64,000 nt of DNA from Escherichia phage vB_EcoS_HASG4 (NC_100331.1), one strand, 5' to 3'. Counted from the first letter of the stretch, positions 6,872 to 64,000 are shown. The notes: generated by a model from the letters alone, not told the origin. Translations and numbers: made by a program.

Positions 6872-7576
6872 ATGGCCGGTTCTCGCAGAAAGAAACATAT
6901 CCATGAAATCCCGGATGAAGTCTTTAAAAAGGTTATAGAGCATCTGGAGAACGGTGGTACCAAGAAAGCAGCTTGTGAAATGATCGGCGTATCATCCAAT
7001 CCGACTATGGAAAGGATGATAGAAGAGTGGCAAGATCGCCAAATTCAAGTTGCCGAGATGAAGAAAAAGAAACGTGGTACACTCATTGAAGGTATTGAGT
7101 TGGCCAACGTTATTGAACAATATCTATCTGGTGATTCTTTTGAAGAGATTGCCGATCGTAATTACCGCTCTGTAGCAATGGTTAAATCTGTTCTGGAACG
7201 CTATGGCGCTCTGCTTCGTTTGAATGATATTGTAGATCCATTGAATCCACCAATTATTCCTGATGATGCTGTAGCAGAAGAATTTGAGGTTGGAGAACTT
7301 GTTTGGGTTCCTGGATACCAGTGTATCGGTGAAATCAAAAAAGCAATGGATAATCCTGTTGGTTGCTATCGTGTATGGCTTCTATCGGAAGGCAAACAAC
7401 AGAACGTTCATTATATGAATTATGAGCTGGCTTCTGTTAAACATCTGGAAAAGTTAGGGGTAGACGTAAAATCTCTGGGGTACAAATGGACTCGGGAAGA
7501 AGTCATTACGTTGATTAACGAAGCTGTTAAGGCTGCCTTGAAACTTGATAAAGAAAAAGGAAAACGCCGTGAGTAA
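6872..7576 (+). CDS. putative DNA-binding protein (HTH-like N-terminus)
   Basis: N-terminal GGTKKAACEMIGVSSNPTMERMIEEW looks like a helix-turn-helix; basic C-terminus. Position is consistent with a T5 D5-type DNA-binding protein (from memory, unverified). Confidence 0.45.
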   Translation: MAGSRRKKHIHEIPDEVFKKVIEHLENGGTKKAACEMIGVSSNPTMERMIEEWQDRQIQVAEMKKKKRGTLIEGIELANVIEQYLSGDSFEEIADRNYRSVAMVKSVLERYGALLRLNDIVDPLNPPIIPDDAVAEEFEVGELVWVPGYQCIGEIKKAMDNPVGCYRVWLLSEGKQQNVHYMNYELASVKHLEKLGVDVKSLGYKWTREEVITLINEAVKAALKLDKEKGKRRE

Positions 7577-53693: not shown

Positions 53694-53858
53694 TTGGGAA
53701 ATCTCGAAATTTCATAAGATTACACATGGAGGTGTGCTCACTGCCTCCGGCGGAAATACTTAGTCTGCTAACCGCCACCCTCCGTTACTATTACCATGCT
53801 AACTGTTTCACCCTGCAACCATTTTAATTGCAAGGTGAAACAATTTCAACTTTAATTG

Positions 53859-54593
53859 TTAGGCAACTTTTAATTTCTCAATATATTGTTGCGGGCTGCA
53901 ACTATATTCTGCGCGTTCTTCCTCGGTCATACTTTCCCAACATAATTGCAGGCGGTCGGCTAGAAATTGATAATCATTATCATCCTCAAGAGATTCATCA
54001 ATAAAGGTTTCACCTATCAATGTAACCCCAATCGATAGAATATCGTTAATAGCTTGCGCGTCCAGCGTTTTAAATCCGTATGATGCCGCCGCTGATAGTA
54101 CGCCTTTATGATCATCAATCATCGTAAAATCAGCGTTAGGATATAACTGTTTAAATAGCTCAAAATAATGGCTTTTATAAATAGCGTCTTTACTGTGGTA
54201 TATTTCGCTAACTTTATCAGCTTCAAAATATTTGTGTAGTGTATCGCGGGAAAACACGCGGATATTGCTTTTATCACGACCGCGCAAGCCTTGTTTGCGC
54301 AAGAAATAATAATCCGACTTGCTCATCAATCGAGCGGTGCAAATAATGTTTAACGTGTTAACGTCATTCATGCACTGGCGCATATATGTAACAAGCGGCA
54401 ATAGTGTATCTTGCATTATTAAATCATGTTTGCAGGCTTCATTTTTATACTTATTTAAATCTAAATTGCCCTCACTATCAAAGCAAGGCGCTACACGATG
54501 GAAAGAGTTAATGATAGTGCCATCCAGATCCCAAATCATGACGCGGGAAATATGTGGGAAGCTGCGGGAAATATTCATAATAGCTTTATTCAT
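53859..54593 (-). CDS. dmp: HAD-family 5'-deoxyribonucleotidase (dmp-like)
   Basis: N-terminal MIWDLDGTIINS carries HAD motif I DxDGT; 244 aa, the size I recall for T5 Dmp. Confidence 0.6.
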   Translation of the reverse strand: MNKAIMNISRSFPHISRVMIWDLDGTIINSFHRVAPCFDSEGNLDLNKYKNEACKHDLIMQDTLLPLVTYMRQCMNDVNTLNIICTARLMSKSDYYFLRKQGLRGRDKSNIRVFSRDTLHKYFEADKVSEIYHSKDAIYKSHYFELFKQLYPNADFTMIDDHKGVLSAAASYGFKTLDAQAINDILSIGVTLIGETFIDESLEDDNDYQFLADRLQLCWESMTEEERAEYSCSPQQYIEKLKVA

Positions 54594-54672
54594 TTGTTAC
54601 GTTCTCCATTAAAGGGATTAGATTAATTCAGCATTACCCGCTATTTATAAGCGGGTAATAATAAATTAACTA

Positions 54673-55068
54673 TTAAAGACCATAAGCCAACGCATCAGCG
54701 ATAAAACTAACATCCTCACCGGATACGCTGGAACGAATCCCGGCACAAGTATATACCTTTGCGCTGATCAATTGATCATCGAGGCAAGCGGGGCAAGGCG
54801 CAACCACTGCGAAAGCTAAACCGGATTTTACCGCGTCAATAATAATTGTTTCCTGCTTCATCGTGTCAACATAAACACCTTTTGCTTTAATATGGCTGGT
54901 TAGTTTACCTTGCATATATGCAAACGTTGTAACTTGCATTGCATCATTGAAATCTAACAATTCATCAATAACGTGCCCCGCCTCGACGTGGTAACGTTCA
55001 CCATTAGAATAAACCAGAACAATGGAAGACTGAGCGCGGTCAAATGGAATGCGATTAGATTTAGCCAT
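54673..55068 (-). CDS. hypothetical protein
   Basis: Intact ORF with the conserved leader upstream; contains HVE and PCPAC but with non-canonical spacing. Confidence 0.4.
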   Translation of the reverse strand: MAKSNRIPFDRAQSSIVLVYSNGERYHVEAGHVIDELLDFNDAMQVTTFAYMQGKLTSHIKAKGVYVDTMKQETIIIDAVKSGLAFAVVAPCPACLDDQLISAKVYTCAGIRSSVSGEDVSFIADALAYGL

Positions 55069-55105
55069 GTTTATAACTCCAGTTAGTTTAATAAGGGGGT
55101 TTAAT

Positions 55106-55363
55106 TTACTTGATAATAATCTGCATTTGATATGGCGTTAATTCACCATTTACGGGTAAATTATTATCACTCAACCACTCATAAAAAGCGTCATCATCGT
55201 CAAAGGGAACAATATCATTATCACGATAATCGACCGTAATAATCCCATCTGTATTAGTTTTGGCGGCTAGGATAGGTCCGAAGCTGTAAACTTTATCGGA
55301 TTCCATTTCATCCGGTGAAATAAATGCTTTTTCGTCCAGCGTTTTGGGTAATGTAACTTTCAT
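55106..55363 (-). CDS. hypothetical acidic protein
   Basis: 85-aa ORF, Asp-rich. Confidence 0.35.
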   Translation of the reverse strand: MKVTLPKTLDEKAFISPDEMESDKVYSFGPILAAKTNTDGIITVDYRDNDIVPFDDDDAFYEWLSDNNLPVNGELTPYQMQIIIK

Positions 55364-55420
55364 TCTAATTTAGCTCCTGTAATAGCGGCTATATTTCAAG
55401 CCGCTAGGGGAATAATTTAA

Positions 55421-57085
55421 TTACGCGAAAAATTTACCATTCTTAAAGTCAATCAAGGTGCGCTGACCGTTTGCATAGGTAATAACATGCGTTTGTGTCC
55501 AGCTTGACGCGCCAACGTTATAACCCATGTCCAGACTACCAGACACGCCAGCGGTGTATACGCCGCCGTAAATACTGGCGGTATGAGTGTGCCCCGTGTT
55601 TAATTTGCCCAATTTCTTAAACTGTTTCGGATTGCCACGGCTGCCGTTTATGCCGTTGTGACCGTGTACGCCGCATTCAATGCCTGCAATCTTGAAAGAT
55701 TGATCAGTGGTCAGAAAAATAGCGTTAAACTCACAACCTGCAACCTTACGCAGCGCATAATCTAGCACGTTGAAAGTATCGTCTTTTTCTGCAATAGCTC
55801 CATAAATCGCAGCATTAAGGCGGTGATATAGTTCCGCGTTTGCTGGGTCGTCTTTAATGTTAGCATTACGATCATCCAGCCAACGGGATAGCGCCAAATC
55901 GTGGTTTGATTCAACAATGATCGTTTGAGCAAAATCGCGCTCCATCGATTCCAGCACGCGCCCGGTATCGATAAGATCATCCAGAACTTTATCACGTCCG
56001 GCGGCGTATTGTTTCGCTAGGAATACACCGGAGGCACGATTATGATGATTGCGTGATGTAAAATCATGCACGTCATGGACGAATTGATATTTTGGCTTGA
56101 GAATATCAAGCAAGCTATTTTCCCCAGCCCATGATGCAACGGCGCAAGCGTCATCCAATTTTTCGGCGTGGACGTCGCCATATTGTAAACCTAAAACGTG
56201 CCCCGATGTTTCATAGCATCCGGCGGGAGTAGCGCAAACATTCAGATCATAAAATACGCCGCTTTCATCCATCGTTTCAAGCTGGCGAACAAAAAATTCT
56301 CCGTCTTCGTCGAACTCGACAATAAGCGCACCGAAGTTATGCAGCGCCTCGGCCTTTTGTCCTGCTTTCTGCTGGATGTAGTTTTTTAACGTTGCCGTTC
56401 CGGTTGAATACATACGGCGCACAATTTCACCTTTTAAAGCTGGCACGCTTTCAGCGGTAATTTTAGCCGCTCCGATTGCCAGACCTTCGAGATTAAGCGC
56501 GGTTGCAGTTTCAGCGAATCCAGAAAGCGGATAATCTGCGGTGGGCAAAACATTAATTTCAGCCATGAAAGCAAAACGGCGATTGTTTAAAAATACGTTT
56601 TTGCTGCAAATATATTTATCAAACGCAGAATCATATTTGATTCCGTCTGCCCCTTCCCCATTTTGAAAACCGTTTTTATTATAAATATACTTAGAAACAA
56701 GCAAATCAGCGCCAATAAATTGGGCATATTGTTCAAGCGAGGCTAAAAAGTTTTTATGCGGGAAAGTATTATTCTGAATCGATGTAATAATAAAGCGTTT
56801 GCCTTGTTTTACTTCCCATTGCTCCACCGTGCTAGAAATAACTCCAGCGGCTTCAGGGCGGTCATCGTTTTTTATGGCTTTTGCTGTTTTTGCCGCTTTT
56901 GGTTTCGCTGGTTTATTTGCTTCCAACCAGTCGCAGATAGCGGTCGAGTGTTTTGTAGTATCGTATACCGCTTTTGATATATCGTCGCAGACTTCCAGTT
57001 TAGTAGCGCGCAGACGTTTACCATAGAAATTAAAGTCAGCGGCAAGGTTGAGAATCTGGGCTTGTTTTTCTGCGGAAATAATCAT
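55421..57085 (-). CDS. A1: A1-like pre-early protein, calcineurin-like metallophosphoesterase
   Basis: Phosphoesterase-type motifs GDVH, SNHD, GHTHT; 554 aa, close to what I recall for T5 A1; conserved leader upstream. Confidence 0.6.
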   Translation of the reverse strand: MIISAEKQAQILNLAADFNFYGKRLRATKLEVCDDISKAVYDTTKHSTAICDWLEANKPAKPKAAKTAKAIKNDDRPEAAGVISSTVEQWEVKQGKRFIITSIQNNTFPHKNFLASLEQYAQFIGADLLVSKYIYNKNGFQNGEGADGIKYDSAFDKYICSKNVFLNNRRFAFMAEINVLPTADYPLSGFAETATALNLEGLAIGAAKITAESVPALKGEIVRRMYSTGTATLKNYIQQKAGQKAEALHNFGALIVEFDEDGEFFVRQLETMDESGVFYDLNVCATPAGCYETSGHVLGLQYGDVHAEKLDDACAVASWAGENSLLDILKPKYQFVHDVHDFTSRNHHNRASGVFLAKQYAAGRDKVLDDLIDTGRVLESMERDFAQTIIVESNHDLALSRWLDDRNANIKDDPANAELYHRLNAAIYGAIAEKDDTFNVLDYALRKVAGCEFNAIFLTTDQSFKIAGIECGVHGHNGINGSRGNPKQFKKLGKLNTGHTHTASIYGGVYTAGVSGSLDMGYNVGASSWTQTHVITYANGQRTLIDFKNGKFFA

Positions 57086-57183
57086 GGTAATAAAACTCCA
57101 TTAAAGGGATTAAAAAACGTTTGTTATTGGCAAATATTGCCAAATATAACGCCTATTATTTGAGGCGTTATAATTTGCAATAT

Positions 57184-57399
57184 TTAACTAATCGGCATCA
57201 GGCTAGAACTAACACCACAAGCAACGGCGGCAATAAAACAAATAAGACCTAAACGCTTTGCTAACTTAGATTTACGTTTAAAATAATATGAATCCAGATC
57301 ATTTTGGAAATAAGCAAACAATAACGAGGCCGCTACAATAAATAATCCTAGAATGAGGGATTCAGTAGGGTAAAAGATCATTTTAATAACTCCAGTCAA
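57184..57399 (-). CDS. small membrane protein (two hydrophobic segments)
   Basis: 71-aa ORF between the A2-like and A1-like genes. Confidence 0.35.
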   Translation of the reverse strand: MTGVIKMIFYPTESLILGLFIVAASLLFAYFQNDLDSYYFKRKSKLAKRLGLICFIAAVACGVSSSLMPIS

Positions 57400-57437
57400 A
57401 GGAAATTATAGTGGGGAGTATTCCCCACTAATTAAAT

Positions 57438-57845
57438 TTATTCACCTGCGGCCTGTTTTACTTCATCGGCAACGCCCAATAGTTGCGCCACGGCGTCCAA
57501 CGTTTCTAATTTTGCGCTTTCCAGTGATGCCAGATCGTCAACGTCTTTGATAATACCGGAATCGATGGCATGTTTTGCAATAACGCGCACATAATGCGCT
57601 TTGCGGATAGAACTGCCGCCGCCAACCTTGCGAGGTTTATCGCTTTTCTGATACGCTTTCGCGCTGGTCAATTTTGAGCGAACGGACACGGGAGAAGCCG
57701 CACCTACTGCTTTCGCGATCTCTTTCAAGCCGTCGCTATTTGCGAAATCTAAACCGTTTTCATTGATTAGCTGCTGATACATGGTAACAGCCTGCTGGGT
57801 GTTTTCTTCATTCCAAGAAAATTTTACGGTTTTAACGTTAGTCAT
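57438..57845 (-). CDS. A2: A2-like pre-early protein
   Basis: 135-aa ORF immediately upstream of the A1-like gene; size and position match T5 A2 as I recall it. Confidence 0.45.
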   Translation of the reverse strand: MTNVKTVKFSWNEENTQQAVTMYQQLINENGLDFANSDGLKEIAKAVGAASPVSVRSKLTSAKAYQKSDKPRKVGGGSSIRKAHYVRVIAKHAIDSGIIKDVDDLASLESAKLETLDAVAQLLGVADEVKQAAGE

Positions 57846-57943
57846 GGTAAAAACTCCTATTAGTTTAATTTAAGGGATAAGATTAACATAATGTTAATCG
57901 TTATATACCCCGAACTACTGGGGTATATAAAGTTAACACTAAA

Positions 57944-58195
57944 TTACAAAACAGCTTCCCATTTTTCGTTGCGTTGAACAACCTTTACAACATCGCCGGA
58001 TTTAACGCGAACGCTAAAAACGGTTTTGCCGTTGTTACTGCGTTCCGTTTCAGCGTATACCGCGTCGATTGTATCGAACGGCATAAGCGCCGCACCTTTA
58101 ATGCGTTCGGCCTTTCCGGTTAACTCATCCGTTTTAGTAACGAAAGGAATAAAAACGGATTGACCAATTTTTGGCGCGGTAATAACGTTTTGCAT
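57944..58195 (-). CDS. hypothetical protein
   Basis: 83-aa ORF with the conserved leader and AGGAG SD. Confidence 0.4.
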   Translation of the reverse strand: MQNVITAPKIGQSVFIPFVTKTDELTGKAERIKGAALMPFDTIDAVYAETERSNNGKTVFSVRVKSGDVVKVVQRNEKWEAVL

Positions 58196-58422
58196 AGTAT
58201 AAACTCCTAGTTATTTGGGGATTATTCCGCATTACCTGCTAGAAGGTAGCAGGTAATAAGTAACAATCCGCTCGCCAGTTTAACCAATTTAAAGAACTCC
58301 ACGTAGGCCGCTATATCCCAGTTAGGGGGCGGGATGCATTATGGTAAGCACCGACCGTCAAATTTTATCAAGTTATCGCTCTTATCGAACTGAGTACATC
58401 TTAAAACCTATCGGCTAGGTTG

Positions 58423-58626
58423 TCAAACGGTTTTTTGCAATTTTTTATGATTTTCTTTCAAGTCAATCATAATATTTCGCCAGATCATTTCTAGACCTTG
58501 CTGGCGACCTCTCTTGTACTGCGTGAATCGGTATTTTACCGATCTTTGCGCTACTGTCAACAAATTTTTTGTTTTGCTATCTAGTGCCTTAATAGGCTTG
58601 CCAGTGATCAATAAAGTTTGTTTCAT
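58423..58626 (-). CDS. hypothetical small basic protein (uncertain)
   Basis: 67-aa ORF inside the large intergenic region; weak SD. Confidence 0.2.
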   Translation of the reverse strand: MKQTLLITGKPIKALDSKTKNLLTVAQRSVKYRFTQYKRGRQQGLEMIWRNIMIDLKENHKKLQKTV

Positions 58627-59256
58627 ATCGTCGATTCCTTATAATAGATAAGTTTACCGCCGATAGGCTTTAAGATGTACCCAATTTTTAAAGAGCGTGG
58701 CGGTAAACTTCCCGCCGTGTAGTTCGTCATTGCCGCCCTACGTGATAAATAATAGGGGATTCCCGAAAATGGCGCAACCTTATTTTTGTAAAGAAACGTA
58801 AAGACAAAATTCACCGGACGGCGTGCGGTGACGGCCTAAAATTAAAAGAAACGGGCGCGCGAATACCACAAAACAAAGCAAATAGGCAAGTAATTTTTTC
58901 ATTTATATTTGCTTTCCCCTACTTGACAAAATCTAAAAAGCTCGTGGTAGCGATAAACGGCTTATCCCCTTATGATGGGATGGCTAAAAACTTTATTGCG
59001 TTCTAGGGCGTTTTAGGCGGCTCATTTTCGATTTAACAAATATCTAACAAAAGCAAAATTGAAAAATAGTTGAAAAAGGTCTTGACTTTTAAAAATCAAG
59101 GGGCATTGCATTAATTTATAAAATAAATTAATTGACTTTTATTTGTTGTTGTGTATTAGAAAGATAGCAAACTAATAATTACTAGAATGATAATCATGCT
59201 GGTGGATTGTAACGGCTTAAATTATTAGCAGACTACTAATCCCGGAAAATCTCATT

Positions 59257-59310
59257 AGCCAACTAACTGTTTCATAAGTTATAATATACATATAAATTAA
59301 TGAGAAATAA
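59257..59310 (+). promoter_or_regulatory. promoter-like element of the T5 family (weak -35)
   Basis: GTTATAAT with TATAAT at 59280-59285, then ATACATATAAATTAATGAGAAA. Confidence 0.35.
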
Positions 59311-59419
59311 TAATTATAAGAAAACGTAACCGATAGGAATAATAACTATAAAAATAATCACTACTATAATAATAACTATAAGAAACTATCGGCCTAAGTG
59401 AGAACCACTATCATTTAAG

Positions 59420-59440
59420 TTATCCACAAAGTTATCCACA
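59420..59440 (+). promoter_or_regulatory. two perfect DnaA boxes (TTATCCACA) in direct repeat
   Basis: TTATCCACA at 59420-59428 and 59432-59440, just downstream of an AT-rich repeat tract. Confidence 0.6.
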
Positions 59441-59794
59441 GCACTTTTTGACTTGACACGATATGCGGCGATACAAGGACTTTTGCTCAGACTTACCCAC
59501 AGGTTATCCTACTGTATAAATATACAAGGTAAAAAGATAGTGTTAACAACTGCAATCAATTTTAAGCGGCCTAAATCGCTTTCTAACGAGCAAAACGCTG
59601 TAGGGTAATATTAAAGTAAAGCCTCAACGTGTCGGCCTGGTGGCTTCGCCGTGTTTTGCTCTTTACTATACCGCTGCGCGGTTAGCATAAAAATAAGCGT
59701 TAGGCAAGGAAAATAAAAAGGTAAAATAATATTTGCCCCTAGAAAGAAAATACCTTTATCATTCACTCACCGATTAACGAGGGAGGCCGAACAA

Positions 59795-60787
59795 ATGAGG
59801 CTTTATAAACCAGATAACGCAACCGTCTTAAAAGGTGCATTGCGCAACCTGCTGGATGGTAGCAGAACAACCAGCATTAAACATTTTGTTTTCAATATTG
59901 AAACACTTCATCGTAATTTTCTTGATGATTACGATGCTTATAATATGAATAGTTTTCTACCGTTATATAATCAAGGGGCAACGCTTGTTTTATATAATCA
60001 GGAATCTCACTTGCTTACTAGTCGAGGGCCAGATACTGATTTTATTATAGTGAAAGGCAGTACAGTAAAAGCCTATGATGCGGGGGCGGGCTTAGAAGTT
60101 TTCACGATAGAAAATTATGAGCCTTATGATAAGGATCTTTATGACGTAGAAAATTTTCTCGATTCATTTTGGCGTTATTTATCAATTGGGTGGAATCGGT
60201 CGGATTATGACGGGTATCGTTTTGCGGCTGTAATGGCTTTTGATGATAACGGTAATTTTTTGTTACCGTCGGAATTATACCCGTATGTATATAATGATTT
60301 AATAGAGGAGGCTGGTTTTACTTTCTGGAAAGATGAAGATCAGCCTATTGACAATATAGAAAACCATGCTGTAAATTCTAACACTCAAAGCGTTAACACT
60401 CAAACTACTGAAAACAAAGGAAAAAATACCATGACCAAGATCGCTAATATCGTTGCCGCTAATAAATCCGCTGTTGTAAATGCTGCAAAACTGGAAGCGG
60501 GTAAAATTGCACTGACTCAAATCACGAAAGTAGCGGCTAAAAAAGCGCCGTTTATGATTAAAGGTTATATTGATACGCCGATTGGTCGTGTAGTGATCGC
60601 TAACCTATTGAGTGTAGCGGTTGACCAGTACGCCCCAACTAACCAAAAGGCAAAAGCGGTAGCAGGCGCGGCTATGGAAGCGGCAATGCTGGAAATGGTG
60701 CAAAGTTTTAACATCGCTGAAATGATTGATGAAATGGTAAAAGGTATCGATATTTCTACTTTTACCACTAACACCGAAAGCGAGTAA
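59795..60787 (+). CDS. hypothetical protein
   Basis: 330-aa ORF with GAGG SD; first gene of a rightward cluster. Confidence 0.45.
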   Translation: MRLYKPDNATVLKGALRNLLDGSRTTSIKHFVFNIETLHRNFLDDYDAYNMNSFLPLYNQGATLVLYNQESHLLTSRGPDTDFIIVKGSTVKAYDAGAGLEVFTIENYEPYDKDLYDVENFLDSFWRYLSIGWNRSDYDGYRFAAVMAFDDNGNFLLPSELYPYVYNDLIEEAGFTFWKDEDQPIDNIENHAVNSNTQSVNTQTTENKGKNTMTKIANIVAANKSAVVNAAKLEAGKIALTQITKVAAKKAPFMIKGYIDTPIGRVVIANLLSVAVDQYAPTNQKAKAVAGAAMEAAMLEMVQSFNIAEMIDEMVKGIDISTFTTNTESE

Positions 60788-60852
60788 TAATATTTAGCGG
60801 GGATTATTTCCCCGCTTTACTATTCCCTTGTTAACTAATAGGAGGCTAACTA

Positions 60853-61347
60853 ATGGCTGAGGAAAAATACGGCTTCTCGCTAGGGGAAGTGAGCACGGCT
60901 AAACACGATATGATCATTTTAGTTGATTGTCATACTGGCTATTGCGGGGAAGGGAACACCGAAGAATATTTTGTTCCTGCTGGTACGGATCTGGACGCTT
61001 TAGCTCACGAAATGGCTATGGATAATGCTTCTCGTTTTGGCAGCGATGGCTATGAAGACGAGGATACTGGCGAATGGTATGAAAATGAAAACGTATACGC
61101 AAGTCTTTATCATTATCAGTTAAGTAAATCCGGCACATATGTAAATGGCGGCGATCCTATTAATTCCGTTGTGAAATTAATTATTAAATATGGTGGCGTC
61201 GAGATAATTGATAACAAAGCGGTAATATATGCAAACCGATTAAAACAGCTTGTTTATATTCCTGATAATACCCGATGGGAGGAATACGCTGTTTTGCATG
61301 ACGAATTGAAACGATGTTTCAATATTGAAGCCCTACAAGTAGTCTAA
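60853..61347 (+). CDS. hypothetical acidic protein
   Basis: 164-aa ORF with AGGAGG SD; Asp/Glu-rich. Confidence 0.45.
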   Translation: MAEEKYGFSLGEVSTAKHDMIILVDCHTGYCGEGNTEEYFVPAGTDLDALAHEMAMDNASRFGSDGYEDEDTGEWYENENVYASLYHYQLSKSGTYVNGGDPINSVVKLIIKYGGVEIIDNKAVIYANRLKQLVYIPDNTRWEEYAVLHDELKRCFNIEALQVV

Positions 61348-61452
61348 TGTAAAGTTTTGTAAAGGTCGCCTTTTATGGTGGCCTTTTTTGTTATAATGCC
61401 TTTACACCAAAACGGTGGATTGAAAATTTTCCCAAAAATTTGGAGGCTTAAA

Positions 61453-61683
61453 ATGGTTGCATACTCTTCTGCTAGTCATCTGTTTACCGCGCAAGGCTGG
61501 GTATCTAATCGCGTCATTATTCATGAAATGGTGCAGGAGTTCGGCATTGCTAAAACGTATAATACCATTCAGGAACTATATAACGCCGATAAAATCGATC
61601 AGCAAACGGCTGGCTTTTTGCTGGATACCCTGAAAGCTGAACATTGCACTAAAAAGCAAGCTGCAAAAATTGTCTTAATGTAA
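61453..61683 (+). CDS. hypothetical protein
   Basis: Internal ATG at 61453 with GGAGG SD; the track's 61375 start lacks an SD. Confidence 0.4.
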   Translation: MVAYSSASHLFTAQGWVSNRVIIHEMVQEFGIAKTYNTIQELYNADKIDQQTAGFLLDTLKAEHCTKKQAAKIVLM

Positions 61684-61736
61684 TTAATAACGGGGGGGGG
61701 GTATTATATCCCCCGATAACTAGGAGGCTATCACAA

Positions 61737-61886
61737 ATGGTTATTTTTCGAGCTATTTTAGCGGGTATCTTGGGCGCTATTTTATCGTTATTTGCAATAG
61801 CTTTCGGTGTTCACGCCGTTATTATCGGCGCGGGTATCGCCGCATTTTCTTATCTGCTGGGCTGCATGACTAGTAAAGGAGAATAA
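61737..61886 (+). CDS. small membrane protein (49 aa)
   Basis: TAGGAGG SD 9 nt upstream; two hydrophobic segments; preceded by a G10 tract. Confidence 0.4.
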   Translation: MVIFRAILAGILGAILSLFAIAFGVHAVIIGAGIAAFSYLLGCMTSKGE

Positions 61887-61888
61887 AA

Positions 61889-62101
61889 ATGATTCGTAAC
61901 GTTTCCCTTGCACGTTCGAAAGGCTTTAGGCTGGTGGACGTTAACACGTTCGAGCGTGAAGATTGTAAAATCGAATATGTAGCACGTAACAAAAATGCCT
62001 TTCGTGTTACTGAGAAAAAATTCGACAAGCGCGGCAACGTGATCGCTGAAACAGTTAAACATTTTGCCACCTTTTATGCTGCGTTTCGTGGGGTATTATA
62101 A
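61889..62101 (+). CDS. hypothetical protein
   Basis: 70-aa ORF with GGAG SD, immediately after the previous stop. Confidence 0.4.
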   Translation: MIRNVSLARSKGFRLVDVNTFEREDCKIEYVARNKNAFRVTEKKFDKRGNVIAETVKHFATFYAAFRGVL

Positions 62102-62102
62102 A

Positions 62103-62447
62103 ATGGTTATTTATGAAGGCAACCGCTTTGTTACTAATTGCCGTCCGGCATTACTAGCAAACTACTTAAATCAGCTTTCCCCAGCTTATAAGGGCGTTAT
62201 TAATATTTATGAGGGCAAGGCGCATTATAAAATCAATGCGGTCGTTGCCCGTGAACTAGCGTTTCAATTTTTGACCTTTGCATCTTGTGACGTTCAGGTC
62301 ATGGGTGAGGCATTAATTGCAGAAAATGAAGATGATTTTATTAATATTTTCCGCAAGATATGCACCGAGCGCCTGATCATGAAAGGCGCTTATATTCAAT
62401 CCACTGCGGATAGTATTGAAACAGCGTTTCGAAAGGTGGCACAATGA
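62103..62447 (+). CDS. hypothetical protein
   Basis: ATG at 62103 directly after the upstream stop; 114 aa. Confidence 0.4.
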   Translation: MVIYEGNRFVTNCRPALLANYLNQLSPAYKGVINIYEGKAHYKINAVVARELAFQFLTFASCDVQVMGEALIAENEDDFINIFRKICTERLIMKGAYIQSTADSIETAFRKVAQ

Positions 62448-62602
62448 AAAAGTTTTTAATAGCTGGTATGTTTCCTTTGTTGCCTTATGTAATTTGCTGG
62501 GCTTTATATGCTCATGGTGCTAGTGTTCCCGGTGTGGCTTCATTTGGTGTATCGGCTGGTTTTCTAACCGGACTATTGGCAAGCGTATATTTACGCAAAT
62601 AA
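62444..62602 (+). CDS. small membrane protein (52 aa)
   Basis: ATG overlapping the upstream stop; two hydrophobic segments. Confidence 0.35.
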   Translation: MKKFLIAGMFPLLPYVICWALYAHGASVPGVASFGVSAGFLTGLLASVYLRK

Positions 62603-62620
62603 TTAATAACGGGAGTTATT

Positions 62621-62824
62621 ATGAGCAATAAAATTATTGTAACCAAAATCAGTACAATGGTTGATGTTTTTTACGTGCCCGATACGCCGGAGAATCGGCA
62701 AGCGGTTGAGCGTGGCGAGTATGATAAAGTGATTTATGATCACGATGGTTATTATCAGCATTTGGCGGATTCCTACGGGGAGGAGGAAAAAATCACGCAT
62801 CGACTACCGGAGGAGGATTTATGA
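62621..62824 (+). CDS. hypothetical protein
   Basis: 67-aa ORF with GGGAG SD. Confidence 0.4.
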   Translation: MSNKIIVTKISTMVDVFYVPDTPENRQAVERGEYDKVIYDHDGYYQHLADSYGEEEKITHRLPEEDL

Positions 62825-62925
62825 AACGATGGTTTAATCACTGGTATAAACGGTTTTTAGTACGCCGTCGCAAGTCTAGGCATCAAGATGAGTGGAGGGA
62901 GTGGGCAAAGCGTAACGGTTGCCCA
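62821..62925 (+). CDS. hypothetical small basic protein (uncertain)
   Basis: 34-aa Arg/Trp-rich ORF overlapping the previous stop. Confidence 0.2.
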
Positions 62926-62975
62926 CTACTATAATAATCACGGGGCGCAACTAGTAAGAAGTGCCCCCAATTCTC

Positions 62976-62996
62976 AAATGAGAATCATTCTCATTT
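62976..62996. repeat. perfect 21-bp palindrome AAATGAGAATCATTCTCATTT
   Basis: Read directly; the two 10-bp arms are exact reverse complements around a central C. Confidence 0.8.
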
Positions 62997-63190
62997 GACC
63001 GCGCCCGCGATGATTAGCCTGCTAATGGTTAGGGTGTTACGTGTCGCCTTGTGTGATCGTTAGCGTGCTAACTAATTTTCAAGCCTCCTCCAATTTTCCC
63101 CTTGTTTTAGTATCCCCGCCAAAATTAAACGCGTTAGAATGCGATTCAGGACGTTTTAAGCCTATATTAGAATTATTCACTGCATAGGAA

Positions 63191-63210
63191 TACTGTATAT
63201 TTATACAGTA
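63191..63210. promoter_or_regulatory. LexA-box-like palindrome TACTGTATATTTATACAGTA
   Basis: Fits CTGT-N8-ACAG with an all-AT spacer; one mismatch to TACTGTATATATATACAGTA. Confidence 0.5.
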
Positions 63211-63222
63211 GAATAACCTGGG

Positions 63223-63301
63223 GATAAGTCTGTGGATAACGCTTCAAAATGGCTAGGGTTCTGTCAAGTCAAATCGTGCTGTTGATAAGTCTGTGGATAA
63301 C
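63223..63301. repeat. exact 18-bp direct repeat GATAAGTCTGTGGATAAC x2, each with a DnaA box (TGTGGATAA)
   Basis: Copies at 63223-63240 and 63284-63301. Confidence 0.75.
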
Positions 63302-63332
63302 TTAAATAACAGTGTTTCTCACTTCCGTTTTT

Positions 63333-63500
63333 AAATGCGAATCATTATCATTCGCATTTCACTAGCTAACCGATAATCACTCCACTTTTTAAATGAGAAT
63401 CATTTCACTTCTTGAATAGTTCTCATTCCCTTTCTTAAATGCAAATCATTATCATTCGCATTTCACTTTTTAAATGAGATTGATTCTCATTATCATTCGC
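63333..63500. repeat. cluster of palindromes built from AAATG(C/A)GAAT half-sites
   Basis: AAATGCGAATCATTATCATTCGCATTT (63333-63359), AAATGAGAA...TTCTCATT (63391-63427), AAATGCAAATCATTATCATTCGCATTT (63437-63463), AAATGAGATTGATTCTCATT (63472-63491). Confidence 0.75.
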
Positions 63501-63533
63501 ATTCAGGCGAGCAAGGCAATTGCCCTGCGCTTT

Positions 63534-63757
63534 TGTGCAAATCCGACATTTGCCCCCATGGATTACGCGTGGGCATGTATGTGCGAATCCGACAATTTTT
63601 GGTAGTGTGCAAATCCGACCCGAAAAATTTTTATAGTGTGCGAATCCGACAATGAATTTTCCTAAAAACTCCAGCAATCACGAACTGCGTTCGAATCCTG
63701 TGGAATTAGCTAGAGTATGTGCAAATCCGACATGTGTTGAGCTGTGCGAATCCGACA
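63534..63757. repeat. six direct 15-bp iterons TGTGC(G/A)AATCCGAC(A/C)
   Basis: Copies start at 63534, 63580, 63606, 63637, 63718, 63743; spacings 46, 26, 31, 81, 25 bp; a degenerate copy (CGTTCGAATCC) near 63690. Confidence 0.8.
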
Positions 63758-64000
63758 AGATTTTTGTGACTTCGATTGGAGGGTGTGTGATTGTATAGGT
63801 TTGAGGAGAAGATGAGAGAGCGAGAGAAATTTTGGGACTAGAAGGATGTGGGCGCAAGATTGGTGCGGAGCACCTGATTTGCGGGGATTTTGGGGGAGAG
63901 TTGAGATAATTTGGGAAGATTTGAGATAGGTGCAGAAAAAGTAAAATTTTATTAGCTAAATGGAGCAAAATAGCTTGACAAGTGAAAATTCTTGTGGCTC

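Follow-up and report, generated by a model that had tools for sequence, protein, structure and literature searches.

The DNA analyzed here, a 64,000-nucleotide (nt) stretch of Escherichia phage vB_EcoS_HASG4 (NC_100331.1) hereafter called the window, represents the right half of a T5-like (Tequintavirus) genome, with the terminal repeat at 53.7-64 kb. The window is offset from the annotated T5 RefSeq record such that window position is approximately 53,735 + T5 coordinate, and because of this coordinate match, we take 53.7-64 kb to be the first-step-transfer (FST) DNA with the pre-early genes; gene starts in the window are consistent with the T5 RefSeq annotation. Over the segment 53800-59200, identity to Escherichia phage vB_EcoS_EASG3 is 95%, and several hundred Tequintavirus and Epseptimavirus genomes match it at 80-90%. 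Pre-early genes are arranged in a leftward set, comprising dmp, A1, A2, and genes coding for proteins of 131, 85, 65, 83, and 67 amino acids (aa), and a rightward set that begins with genes for proteins of 330, 164, 76, 49, and 70 aa (Table 1); in phage BF23, the pre-early genes form two transcription units of inverse orientation (PMC10644984). The two-step DNA injection of T5 rests on rapid, strong, and transient expression of these genes, whose posttranscriptional tuning is essentially unstudied. The subject of this report is a short C-rich element, here termed the C box, that is found upstream of the Shine-Dalgarno (SD) sequence in leaders of pre-early genes.

The original prediction, made from the sequence of the window, described a box of the TAATCCC type ending in a GGAG SD upstream of four minus-strand genes, i.e., dmp, A1, A2, and the 83-aa gene. 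All four leaders are present on that strand, and the coordinates given for them were right within a few bases, except for the A2 range, which was off by approximately 10 nt. The box is shared by more leaders than had been claimed, with additional copies before the 131-aa, 65-aa (degenerate), and 85-aa genes and before three rightward genes, so that seven leftward and three rightward pre-early cistrons in the window bear it. In the sense of the mRNA, the layout reads W-W-T-CCC(C)-T-T-W-A-A, followed by an A/U-rich, G-poor spacer of 5-19 nt, a short GGAG SD, and, 7-10 nt further on, ATG. The dmp leader is the 17-mer TAATCCCTTTAATGGAG followed by N10-ATG, and the A1 leader carries an identical 17-mer; the A2 and 83-aa leaders read TTATCCCTTAAATTAAACTAATAGGAG-N8-ATG and TAATCCCCAAATAACTAGGAG-N8-ATG, the 131-aa leader reads TAAACCCCCTTATTAAACTAACTGGAG, and the three rightward leaders read ATTCCCTTGTTAACTAATAGGAGG, TTTTCCCAAAAATTTGGAGG, and ATATCCCCCGATAACTAGGAGG. 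In the 65-aa leader of this phage, the run is reduced to CC, with CCC found in T5 and most relatives. The 85-aa leader is split, with TATTCCCC directly 5' of a 24-nt hairpin and TTACAGGAG after it.

Membership of the 49-aa leader is ambiguous because its C run doubles as the 3' arm of a hairpin between a G run and a C run, which covaries among relatives (GGGGG..CCCCC vs GGGGCG..CGCCCC). The 5' arm of this hairpin in the window is a G10 homopolymer (61692-61701, plus strand), while relatives have G5 to G10 or the GGGGCG arm; given these differences in run length and arm, the G run either varies among isolates or is prone to sequencing error.

The box is missing from promoter-proximal pre-early genes (67-aa and 330-aa) and from those that are translationally coupled, e.g., the 70-aa gene. 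This distribution suggests that the box marks internal, separately initiated cistrons rather than pre-early genes as such. The original assignment of the element to the first genes expressed thus holds in that only the pre-early class carries it, but not every first-expressed gene does.

The original prediction had staked itself beforehand on the box being more frequent at gene starts than at random positions, and enrichment there was found by k-mer, position weight matrix (PWM), and matched-control analyses. When the exact pattern TAATCCCYTTAAT was searched with at most 1 mismatch, 3 matches were obtained vs 0.49 expected. For the k-mer analysis, all 3- to 5-mers at positions -45 to -10 were compared between 60 SD-led pre-early leaders from six lineages (this window, a Klebsiella phage, Pectobacterium phage My1, a My1-like contig, Proteus phage 1, and Salmonella phage Stitch) and 33 SD-led early/late leaders of the window, whose first 53 kb, containing the early and late genes, served as the internal control. 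The top k-mer was CCC, present in 39 of the 60 pre-early leaders and 3 of the 33 early/late leaders (p=8.6e-8); ranked next were TCCC (31 vs 2) and then CCCT and CCCTT (19 vs 0). The signal is strand specific, since GGG was found in only 8/60 pre-early leaders. When the comparison was restricted to SD-led genes with at least 40 nt of noncoding DNA upstream, CCC was present in 9/10 pre-early and 0/10 early/late leaders (p=1.2e-4). The same held in the My1 lineage, where 7/10 pre-early leaders contained CCC compared to 12/68 SD-led early leaders (p=0.0014); most of these 12 early cases were 3' ends of tRNA genes, and GGG was equally frequent there. A PWM trained exclusively on other phages (22 leaders, drawn from the Klebsiella, Proteus, and two Pectobacterium lineages) was then scanned over both strands of the 64-kb window, and the A2, dmp, and A1 leaders took ranks 1, 2, and 3 of approximately 128,000 positions, with the 76-aa leader coming sixth. 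The pattern WWTCCC[CT]*WW has 17 matches in the terminal repeat, and 8 of them fell inside leaders, which account for approximately 2% of its sequence.

Early-gene leaders with noncoding DNA upstream (e.g., at 6872, 9113, 10560, and 52586 on the plus strand) start approximately 25 nt from a TATAAT box and share the sequence ATAAATT(T/G)..GAG.., an architecture quite unlike that of the pre-early cistrons.

The anatomy of the box was deduced from 44 box-bearing leaders. The C run is 3 nt long in 28 cases, 4 in 12, and 5 in 4; directly 5' of it stands T in 33/44 leaders, preceded by A or T, and 3' of it follow T, T, A/T, A, and A. The spacer between box and SD is 80% A+T and 8% G. The SD core begins 5-19 nt past the last C in 38 of the 60 pre-early leaders, and the distance from the last C to ATG is 16-31 nt in 38/44. 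All box-bearing leaders have GGAG or AGGAG located 6-11 nt (mode 8) before ATG, which is a canonical SD, and the C box lies outside it. In 25/38 box-bearing leaders, the SD is the minimal 4-nt GGAG, usually with T before and TT after it; the two nt following GGAG are TT in 12/37 leaders and AA in 7/37. SDs of box leaders were not significantly weaker than control SDs, with only a trend in this direction.

Conservation in relatives, which the original prediction had proposed as a check, is evident across the family Demerecviridae. The layout recurs in Klebsiella T5-like phages (A1 73% identical), e.g., TATATCCCATTAACTGGAG before A1; in My1 (A1 65% identical), with TTTCCCAATTAATTTGGAG; in Proteus phage 1 (41% identical), with TTTTCCCTTTAATTAGGAG before dmp; and in Stitch, while Vibrio and Aeromonas Demerecviridae have a looser AACC(C/T) form. 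Across these lineages, A1 proteins are only 35-73% identical, and intergenic DNA beyond the box and SD is unalignable. The leaders of A1 homologues outside Demerecviridae (L047-L063) have no C box, which indicates that the box travels with the T5-type pre-early region and not with A1. In IMG/VR, the exact 15-mer ATCCCTTTAATGGAG preceded an open reading frame (ORF) only in T5-like contigs, with other matches appearing to be chance or coding sequence, and a blastn search of the leader against 5,426 E. coli genomes gave no host match. A cis element common to phages of Escherichia, Salmonella, Klebsiella, Pectobacterium, Proteus, Aeromonas, and Vibrio offers a mutable handle on pre-early expression.

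Among close relatives, CCC is invariant before dmp (24 unique relatives) and A2, with few exceptions before A1 and the 65-aa gene. In the A2 leader, all 28 relatives keep ATCCCTTAA, which the consensus fold leaves unpaired; in the A1 leader, ATCCCTTTAATGGAG is unchanged in most Tequintavirus relatives, and the sequence 5' of it has indels. The 131-aa leader has [T/C]CCC in most of 27 unique relatives, with two variants lacking the run, and the 85-aa leader keeps CCC 5' of its hairpin in 10/11 unique relatives, the Stitch orthologue being without it. The 83-aa run is not invariant, as relatives often have CCAC or CCGA.

Table 1. Genes, C box leaders, and neighboring signals of the pre-early region (window positions unless a record is named)
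Feature	Position	Strand	Composition or remark
dmp	53859-54593	-	
131-aa gene (T5.002-like)		-	
85-aa gene (T5.003-like)		-	
A1	55421-57085	-	
65-aa membrane-protein gene (T5.005-like)		-	
A2	57438-57845	-	
83-aa gene (T5.007-like, DUF7177)		-	
67-aa gene		-	
330-, 164-, 76- (T5.012-like), 49- (T5.013-like), 70-aa, and further genes		+	
dmp leader	54594-54620	-	TAAT-CCC(54616-54614)-TTTAAT-GGAG(54607-54604)-N10-ATG(54593)
131-aa leader	55069-55103	-	TAAA-CCCCC(55099-55095)-14 nt A/U spacer TTATTAAACTAACT-GGAG(55080-55077)-N8-ATG
85-aa leader	55364-55414	-	TATT-CCCC(55410-55407), 24-nt hairpin (55406-55383), TTAC-AGGAG(55378-55374)-N10-ATG
A1 leader	57086-57112	-	TAAT-CCC(57108-57106)-TTTAAT-GGAG(57099-57096)-N10-ATG(57085)
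65-aa leader	57382-57406	-	ATTT-CC(57402-57401)-TTTGACT-GGAG(57393-57390)-N8-ATG
A2 leader	57846-57880	-	TTAT-CCC(57876-57874)-16 nt A/U spacer TTAAATTAAACTAATA-GGAG(57857-57854)-N8-ATG(57845)
83-aa leader	58196-58224	-	TAAT-CCCC(58220-58217)-AAATAACTA-GGAG(58207-58204)-N8-ATG(58195)
164-aa leader	60821-60852	+	TATT-CCC(60825-60827)-TTGTTAACTAATA-GGAGG(60841-60845)-N7-ATG(60853)
76-aa leader	61427-61452	+	TTTT-CCC(61431-61433)-AAAAATTT-GGAGG(61442-61446)-N6-ATG(61453)
49-aa leader	61706-61736	+	ATAT-CCCCC(61710-61714)-GATAACTA-GGAGG
Hairpin 5' of dmp box	54634-54658	-	TTACCCGCT-loop-AGCGGGTAA, without U tract
Two hairpins 5' of A1 box	57171-57146, 57143-57127	-	Predicted folds
Two hairpins 5' of A2 box	57930-57901, 57899-57881	-	Predicted folds and covariation
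Hairpin 5' of 83-aa box	58232-58256	-	Prediction; lower stem would take in AATAATCC of the box
Further intercistronic hairpin	57409-57430	-	Without U tract
Further intercistronic hairpin	60796-60816	+	Without U tract
Sigma-70-like promoter	58560-58533	-	TTGACA-16-TAAAAT; one of the two strongest leftward
Sigma-70-like promoter	58426-58398	-	TTGACA-17-TAAGAT; one of the two strongest leftward
boxA	58696-58685	-	Sole exact copy in 64 kb
boxA, T5 (L001)	4988		
boxA, record L003	2243/2731		
boxA, record L004	932/1236/1715		
boxA, record L005	2573/2748/3184/3271/2173		
boxA, Stitch (L006)	2759/3091		
boxA, My1-like contig (L042)	2469/2779/2985		Includes one near-match
boxA, record L065	3741		
boxA, record L067	3333		

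Altogether, the strand specificity of the box and its constant placement relative to SD and ATG in the two divergent operons strongly indicate a role at the level of RNA and linked to gene starts. A site acting in DNA, such as a binding site for A2 or a nucleoid protein, a transcription pause, or a promoter element, is very improbable: A2 is annotated as a DNA-binding protein and the boxes are spread over the FST DNA, but their orientation always follows the downstream gene in both operons, their position is set by SD and ATG rather than by a DNA landmark, and the boxes of the window contain no internal promoter or terminator and no match to a sigma-70 hexamer.

We also considered that the box might have no function of its own and reflect either descent of duplicated hairpin-leader cassettes or a compositional remnant of G/C hairpin arms. 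The 17-mer identical between dmp and A1 is what duplication predicts, the C columns are barely more conserved than their flanks in close relatives, some orthologues have lost the run, and the 49-aa run is a hairpin arm. Nevertheless, the run persists in place across lineages so diverged in A1 that its surroundings cannot be aligned, it is strand asymmetric, the My1 early leaders with CCC are mostly tRNA 3' ends, and C runs should decay in a genome of 39% G+C; we therefore regard a functionless box as rather improbable.

The original prediction had suggested a shared translational or RNA-processing signal. The box is sense-strand specific, tied to gene starts, confined to one class, and conserved in the family, as a cis-acting RNA signal predicts, and between the two options the sequence evidence favors translation: the box lies in the zone of contact with the 30S subunit and ribosomal protein S1, its context is G-poor and A/U-rich, and the 85-aa leader fits this role. 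Our preferred, if tentative, reading is that the C box may be part of the translation-initiation region and act in the RNA as an S1-type pyrimidine/A-U enhancer of separately initiated, internal cistrons of the long pre-early mRNAs. Pyrimidine- or A/U-rich tracts just 5' of the SD are bound by S1 and stimulate translation; the enhancer in the manX-manY intergenic region, serving the internal cistron manY, lies approximately 30 nt upstream of the start (10.1101/808485). Consistent with such an element, the T5 box is unpaired in consensus folds and has the A+T-rich, G-poor surroundings and the distance to ATG described above, and this geometry, with GGAG mostly 8 nt from ATG, fits the 30S/S1 contact zone. 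The box is absent from coupled and promoter-proximal genes and from early/late leaders that begin approximately 25 nt from a promoter; it is thus missing where de novo recruitment of the 30S subunit would be unneeded or different. In the 85-aa leader, the gap between box and GGAG is 29 nt but would be approximately 5 nt if the 24-nt hairpin closed, and this predicted restoration of spacing supports a role in translation initiation. Discontinuous ribosome-binding sites of this kind are found in T4 genes 25 and 38, of which the 85-aa leader is reminiscent.

Motif, strand and position specificity, restriction to pre-early leaders, and recurrence throughout the family were all observed directly; from them we infer that S1 and the 30S subunit would bind the box and that binding would be stimulatory. 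In the proposed mechanism, the C3-5 tract, set in a G-poor, A/U-rich single strand 5-19 nt 5' of a minimal GGAG, would make up one half, the upstream one, of a bipartite ribosome-binding site. The pyrimidine/A-U block would serve S1 of the 30S subunit as a docking or standby site, and docking would raise the local 30S concentration such that the short SD and the start codon are captured. Bound S1 could, in addition, keep RNase E off the A/U-rich leader; S1 bound upstream of the SD has been reported to stabilize mRNA against this enzyme (PMC7858274). Such help would be needed where a cistron has no nearby 5' end or coupling, at a time when host mRNAs compete with those of the phage and only 8% of the phage genome has entered the cell; most of the cistrons concerned lie downstream of a stable intercistronic hairpin. 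If the box is a true S1-type enhancer with a consensus, it would be unusually sequence specific in a class thought to be nonspecific and could serve as a compact part for expression engineering.

Several observations weigh against this reading. A specific C run recurs in T5-type leaders, whereas known S1 enhancers tolerate U-to-A changes and are not sequence specific (10.1101/808485). A generic A/U enhancer would leave the retention of C in an AT-rich genome unexplained. As to a preference for C, Draper and von Hippel reportedly found in the 1970s that one of two polynucleotide sites of S1 strongly prefers poly(C), with which the C run would agree. Contrary to what would naively be expected of an enhancer, predicted SD accessibility is lower in box leaders than in early/late leaders (0.34 vs 0.52 unpaired). 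Likeness to the rrnB boxA enhancer is statistically weak, with matches of at least 7/9 in 9 of the 60 leaders and scrambled motifs doing the same in 20/300 trials. Constraint on the C columns is also weak, the mean minority fraction over eight leaders being 0.08 compared to 0.11-0.12 for the flanks and 0.003 for GGAG, and the run is lost in some orthologues (CCAC in the 83-aa leader and the two 131-aa variants), which suggests that the element is dispensable or quantitative.

The lower SD accessibility could also mean that the box acts as a weak anti-SD, pairing transiently with GG(A)G and tempering or conditioning translation of toxic pre-early proteins. The predicted pairing probability between the C run and the SD window is approximately 0.37, in silico replacement of CCC by AAA raises SD accessibility by 0.11, and RNAalifold pairs UCCC with GG-GA at dmp. 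However, composition-matched shuffles have the same SD accessibility (0.33 vs 0.31, with 19/38 leaders lower), which indicates no selection for pairing in the natural order of bases; the perfect complement CUCC hardly ever occurs, no covariation is seen where CCCC has changed to CCAC, and with loops of 13-16 nt, a 3-bp helix would be negligible. We consider this explanation quite improbable, and a selected SD-sequestering hairpin of the thermometer or operator type is ruled out by the shuffle control and the rarity of CUCC.

Pairing with other RNAs was likewise examined. All 6- and 7-mers of the 60 leaders were compared to E. coli 16S rRNA (rrsH), and no common target emerged, the best being AAGGGA at 451-456 with 15/60 leaders. 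Pairing with the 790 loop (GGAUUAG vs CUAAUCC) fits only boxes of the TAATCC type and was rejected as a general mechanism. A small RNA (sRNA) directed against the box was also rejected: WWAAGGGRWW has 9 matches vs 7.3 expected, and besides the opposite strands of the boxes themselves, only one lies in the repeat.

A stable hairpin with no U tract precedes most box-bearing leaders at a distance of 0-18 nt. Compensatory changes were detected at 5/9 pairs of the hairpin before dmp (26 relatives) and at 7/16 predicted pairs of the hairpin region before A2 (28 relatives); these two tested hairpins are real, conserved structures. In single-sequence folds, several hairpins lengthen to 20-25 irregular pairs, with covariation only in cores of 9-11 bp. 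RNase III sites of T7 are long irregular duplexes of approximately 20 bp or more with an internal loop, of which the extended T5 hairpins are reminiscent, and RNase III processing of the predicted intercistronic hairpins is conceivable. The boxes were rejected as intrinsic terminators, as they are not hairpin arms except in the 49-aa leader and most of the upstream hairpins have no U tract. An Rfam 15 scan of 53700-64000 gave nothing near a gathering score, the best E-value being 0.54 for an unrelated family at another position.

These hairpins bear on the processing option, according to which hairpin and box would direct endonucleolytic cleavage of the polycistronic transcript at a point past the hairpin but ahead of the SD, so that the message upstream would end in a protective 3' hairpin, or the C run would define or protect the new 5' end. 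Such a determinant of RNA processing or stability would agree with the usual position of the box between a stable hairpin and the SD, the compensatory changes, the length of the extended duplexes, and the missing U tracts, which indicate that the hairpins are not simple terminators. It appears improbable nonetheless, given that the hairpin-box distance varies over its full 0-18 nt, that the order in the 85-aa leader is box-hairpin-SD, that the 131-aa gene of the window has a box without a hairpin, and that the box is not double-stranded in consensus folds. C-rich sequence is not known to be a determinant of RNase E cleavage, and no mapping of 5' ends was found in the T5/BF23 literature searched.

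Another possibility is that the box is a class-specific operator, i.e., a site at which a trans-acting phage or host factor controls pre-early translation or decay, for example by silencing pre-early mRNAs at the switch to early expression as RegA and RegB of T4 act on early mRNAs. What is kept is a specific C run and not mere A/U richness, the box is limited to one temporal class in two lineages, and few separately translated pre-early cistrons of either divergent operon are without it; in addition, pre-early expression is shut off within a few minutes in an A1-dependent manner (T5 annotation note; PMC7472727). On the other hand, a Pfam search of ten pre-early proteins revealed no RegB-like or RNA-binding domain, A2 has no Pfam or PDB relative by sequence, and the complementary GGGA element expected of an sRNA is not enriched. 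The RegB/S1 target GGAGRAYARAA (PMC1702504) is unmatched since T5 leaders read GGAGUU, and the variable spacing and occasional loss of the run suit a soft element better than a strict operator. An operator is thus somewhat unlikely; if the box is a regulator site, it would be the T5 counterpart of the T4 RegA/RegB layer.

T4 RegB/S1 sites resemble the T5 box in that they are a class-specific signature at GGAG SDs of the first genes of a virulent coliphage, and RegB reads its sites with the help of S1. Their determinant, however, is 3' of GGAG with nothing needed upstream (PMC1702504), while the conserved element of T5 is upstream. RegB-like cleavage was rejected, as the consensus is unmatched and no member of the RegB family was found among the ten pre-early proteins scanned.

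Returning to the enhancer reading, the box shares with S1-dependent enhancers, e.g., rrnB boxA, manX-manY, and thrS, a single-stranded, G-poor tract directly 5' of the SD and no more than approximately 35 nt from the start. Komarova 2005 is believed to be the original source for the use of rrnB boxA as an enhancer. The rrnB boxA sequence has been employed as a translational enhancer by Vimberg 2007 (PMC2176067), who attributed it to earlier work, and a G-substituted boxA mutant is a weak enhancer. Both elements have a pyrimidine block followed by UUUAA (GCUCUUUAA in boxA vs UCCCUUUAA in T5), and the commonest T5 box, that of dmp and A1, differs from the boxA core at two positions; the block-SD distance is approximately 16 nt in the boxA construct vs 5-19 nt in T5 leaders. 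This likeness applies mainly to leaders of the dmp/A1 type. Known S1 enhancers tolerate U-to-A and have no defined consensus, in contrast to a C3-5 run kept across a virus family in one temporal class. By this comparison, the T5 box appears most like an S1-type upstream enhancer yet more sequence specific than any member of that class known to us.

The leader of T7 gene 10 carries the "epsilon" element UUAACUUUA upstream of AAGGAG. Like the box, this is a phage A/U-rich element directly 5' of an SD, and several T5 leaders carry UUAACUA/UAAACUAA, with CCCUUGUUAACUAAUAGGAGG in the 164-aa leader; epsilon, however, has no C tract, and the dmp and A1 leaders have no UUAACU element. Identity with epsilon was rejected because only partial UUAACU/UAAACU matches exist in a subset of leaders, with none in dmp or A1. 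AACUA-GGAG is weakly class specific (5/14 vs 3/33). Promoter-early stem-loop (PeSL) cassettes carry a promoter and have been discussed as recombination substrates. PeSL cassettes are located between early genes of T4-type phages (PMC2839356), and like the T5 modules, they are repeated stem-loop units between small early genes, although the T5 units consist of hairpin, C box, and SD with no promoter match. No description of the box was found in the T5/BF23 full-text literature, a search that did not extend to the 2005 T5 genome paper and the sequence papers of the 1980s.

The antitermination boxA, which is bound by NusB/NusE in rrn and lambdoid nut sites, has 8/10 positions in common between AUCCCUUUAA and UGCUCUUUAA. 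The T5 box has U at boxA G2 and C at boxA U4, whereas C5, U6, U7, A9, and A10 are common to both; moreover, the T5 box is repeated per cistron beside the SD, while boxA occurs once after the promoter. In the boxA (U/C)GCUCUUUA core, transversions of G2, C5, and U6 abolish binding, and G2U greatly cuts NusB-NusE affinity (PMC3177189). Because the position corresponding to G2 is T in 33/44 leaders and G in only 4/44, the T5 box is not a boxA.

True boxA copies are nevertheless present in the same pre-early operons as the C boxes. Nearly every Demerecviridae lineage examined has an exact rrn-type boxA, GCTCTTTAA(A/C)AA, most often embedded as (a)acacc-GCTCTTTAAMAA-tttgg, approximately 15-35 nt past sigma-70-like pre-early promoters, with one copy in T5, two in the Klebsiella phage, three in My1, five in Proteus phage 1, two in Stitch, two plus one near-match in the My1-like contig, one in Vibrio phage D332, and a near-match in Vibrio phage Cody. 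None was seen in the regions of Aeromonas AhSzw-1 or Vibrio JSF12 examined or in 49 kb of My1 early genes. The window copy is preceded by TTGCGC-17-TATTAT and a GGCGG..CCGCC hairpin, in an order resembling boxB-boxA. Presence of boxA after pre-early promoters suggests Nus-factor (NusB/NusE) processive antitermination of the pre-early operons, which would enable RNA polymerase to pass the intercistronic hairpins; our literature search found no paper linking boxA with T5. Combining the two motifs, we also entertain the doubtful idea that the C box is an address label, whereby a dedicated factor, either of the phage or a repurposed host protein, would read UCCC(U) in an A/U setting on each separately translated pre-early cistron and either privilege these mRNAs while the host is being shut off or jointly silence them at the onset of second-step transfer. 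Such a label, boxA-like but lacking G2, would load ribosomes or a regulator without binding NusB/NusE and, paired with promoter boxA for Nus loading, would give a two-signal program for the 8% of the genome that enters first.

By position, the T5 region annotated P-H22 and P-D/E20 corresponds to the two leftward promoters of the window that are strongest, and neither is followed by boxA in the window or T5. In Stitch, the P-D/E20 equivalent (L006 3040-3102) is followed by boxA, unlike the window copy, which leads into a 5' untranslated region (UTR) of approximately 190 nt and then the 83-aa gene.

The divergent pre-early operons are separated by approximately 0.9 kb (58830-59790) with no convincing ORF; promoter-like sites, several in number, point either way in this gap, which also has two AGGGGA motifs on the minus strand (58964-58973 and 58913-58921). 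T5 has the HNH endonuclease gene hegG in the equivalent region; this phage does not. Three records labeled "Listeria phage LM 4-11-1/4-14-1" and "Campylobacter phage C13" (OR846838.1, OR848616.1, and MG065692.1) are 85-94% identical to the pre-early region, and their host labels are probably wrong or the samples contaminated.

Finally, the combination of box and GGAG aids in calling the true start codons of small pre-early ORFs. The A1 start is annotated differently among relatives, i.e., EASG3 (L002 1687-3441) vs T5 (L001 1706-3376), with the EASG3 start 66 nt farther upstream and abutting the 65-aa gene; the box, GGAG, and ATG at 57085 support the T5 RefSeq start.

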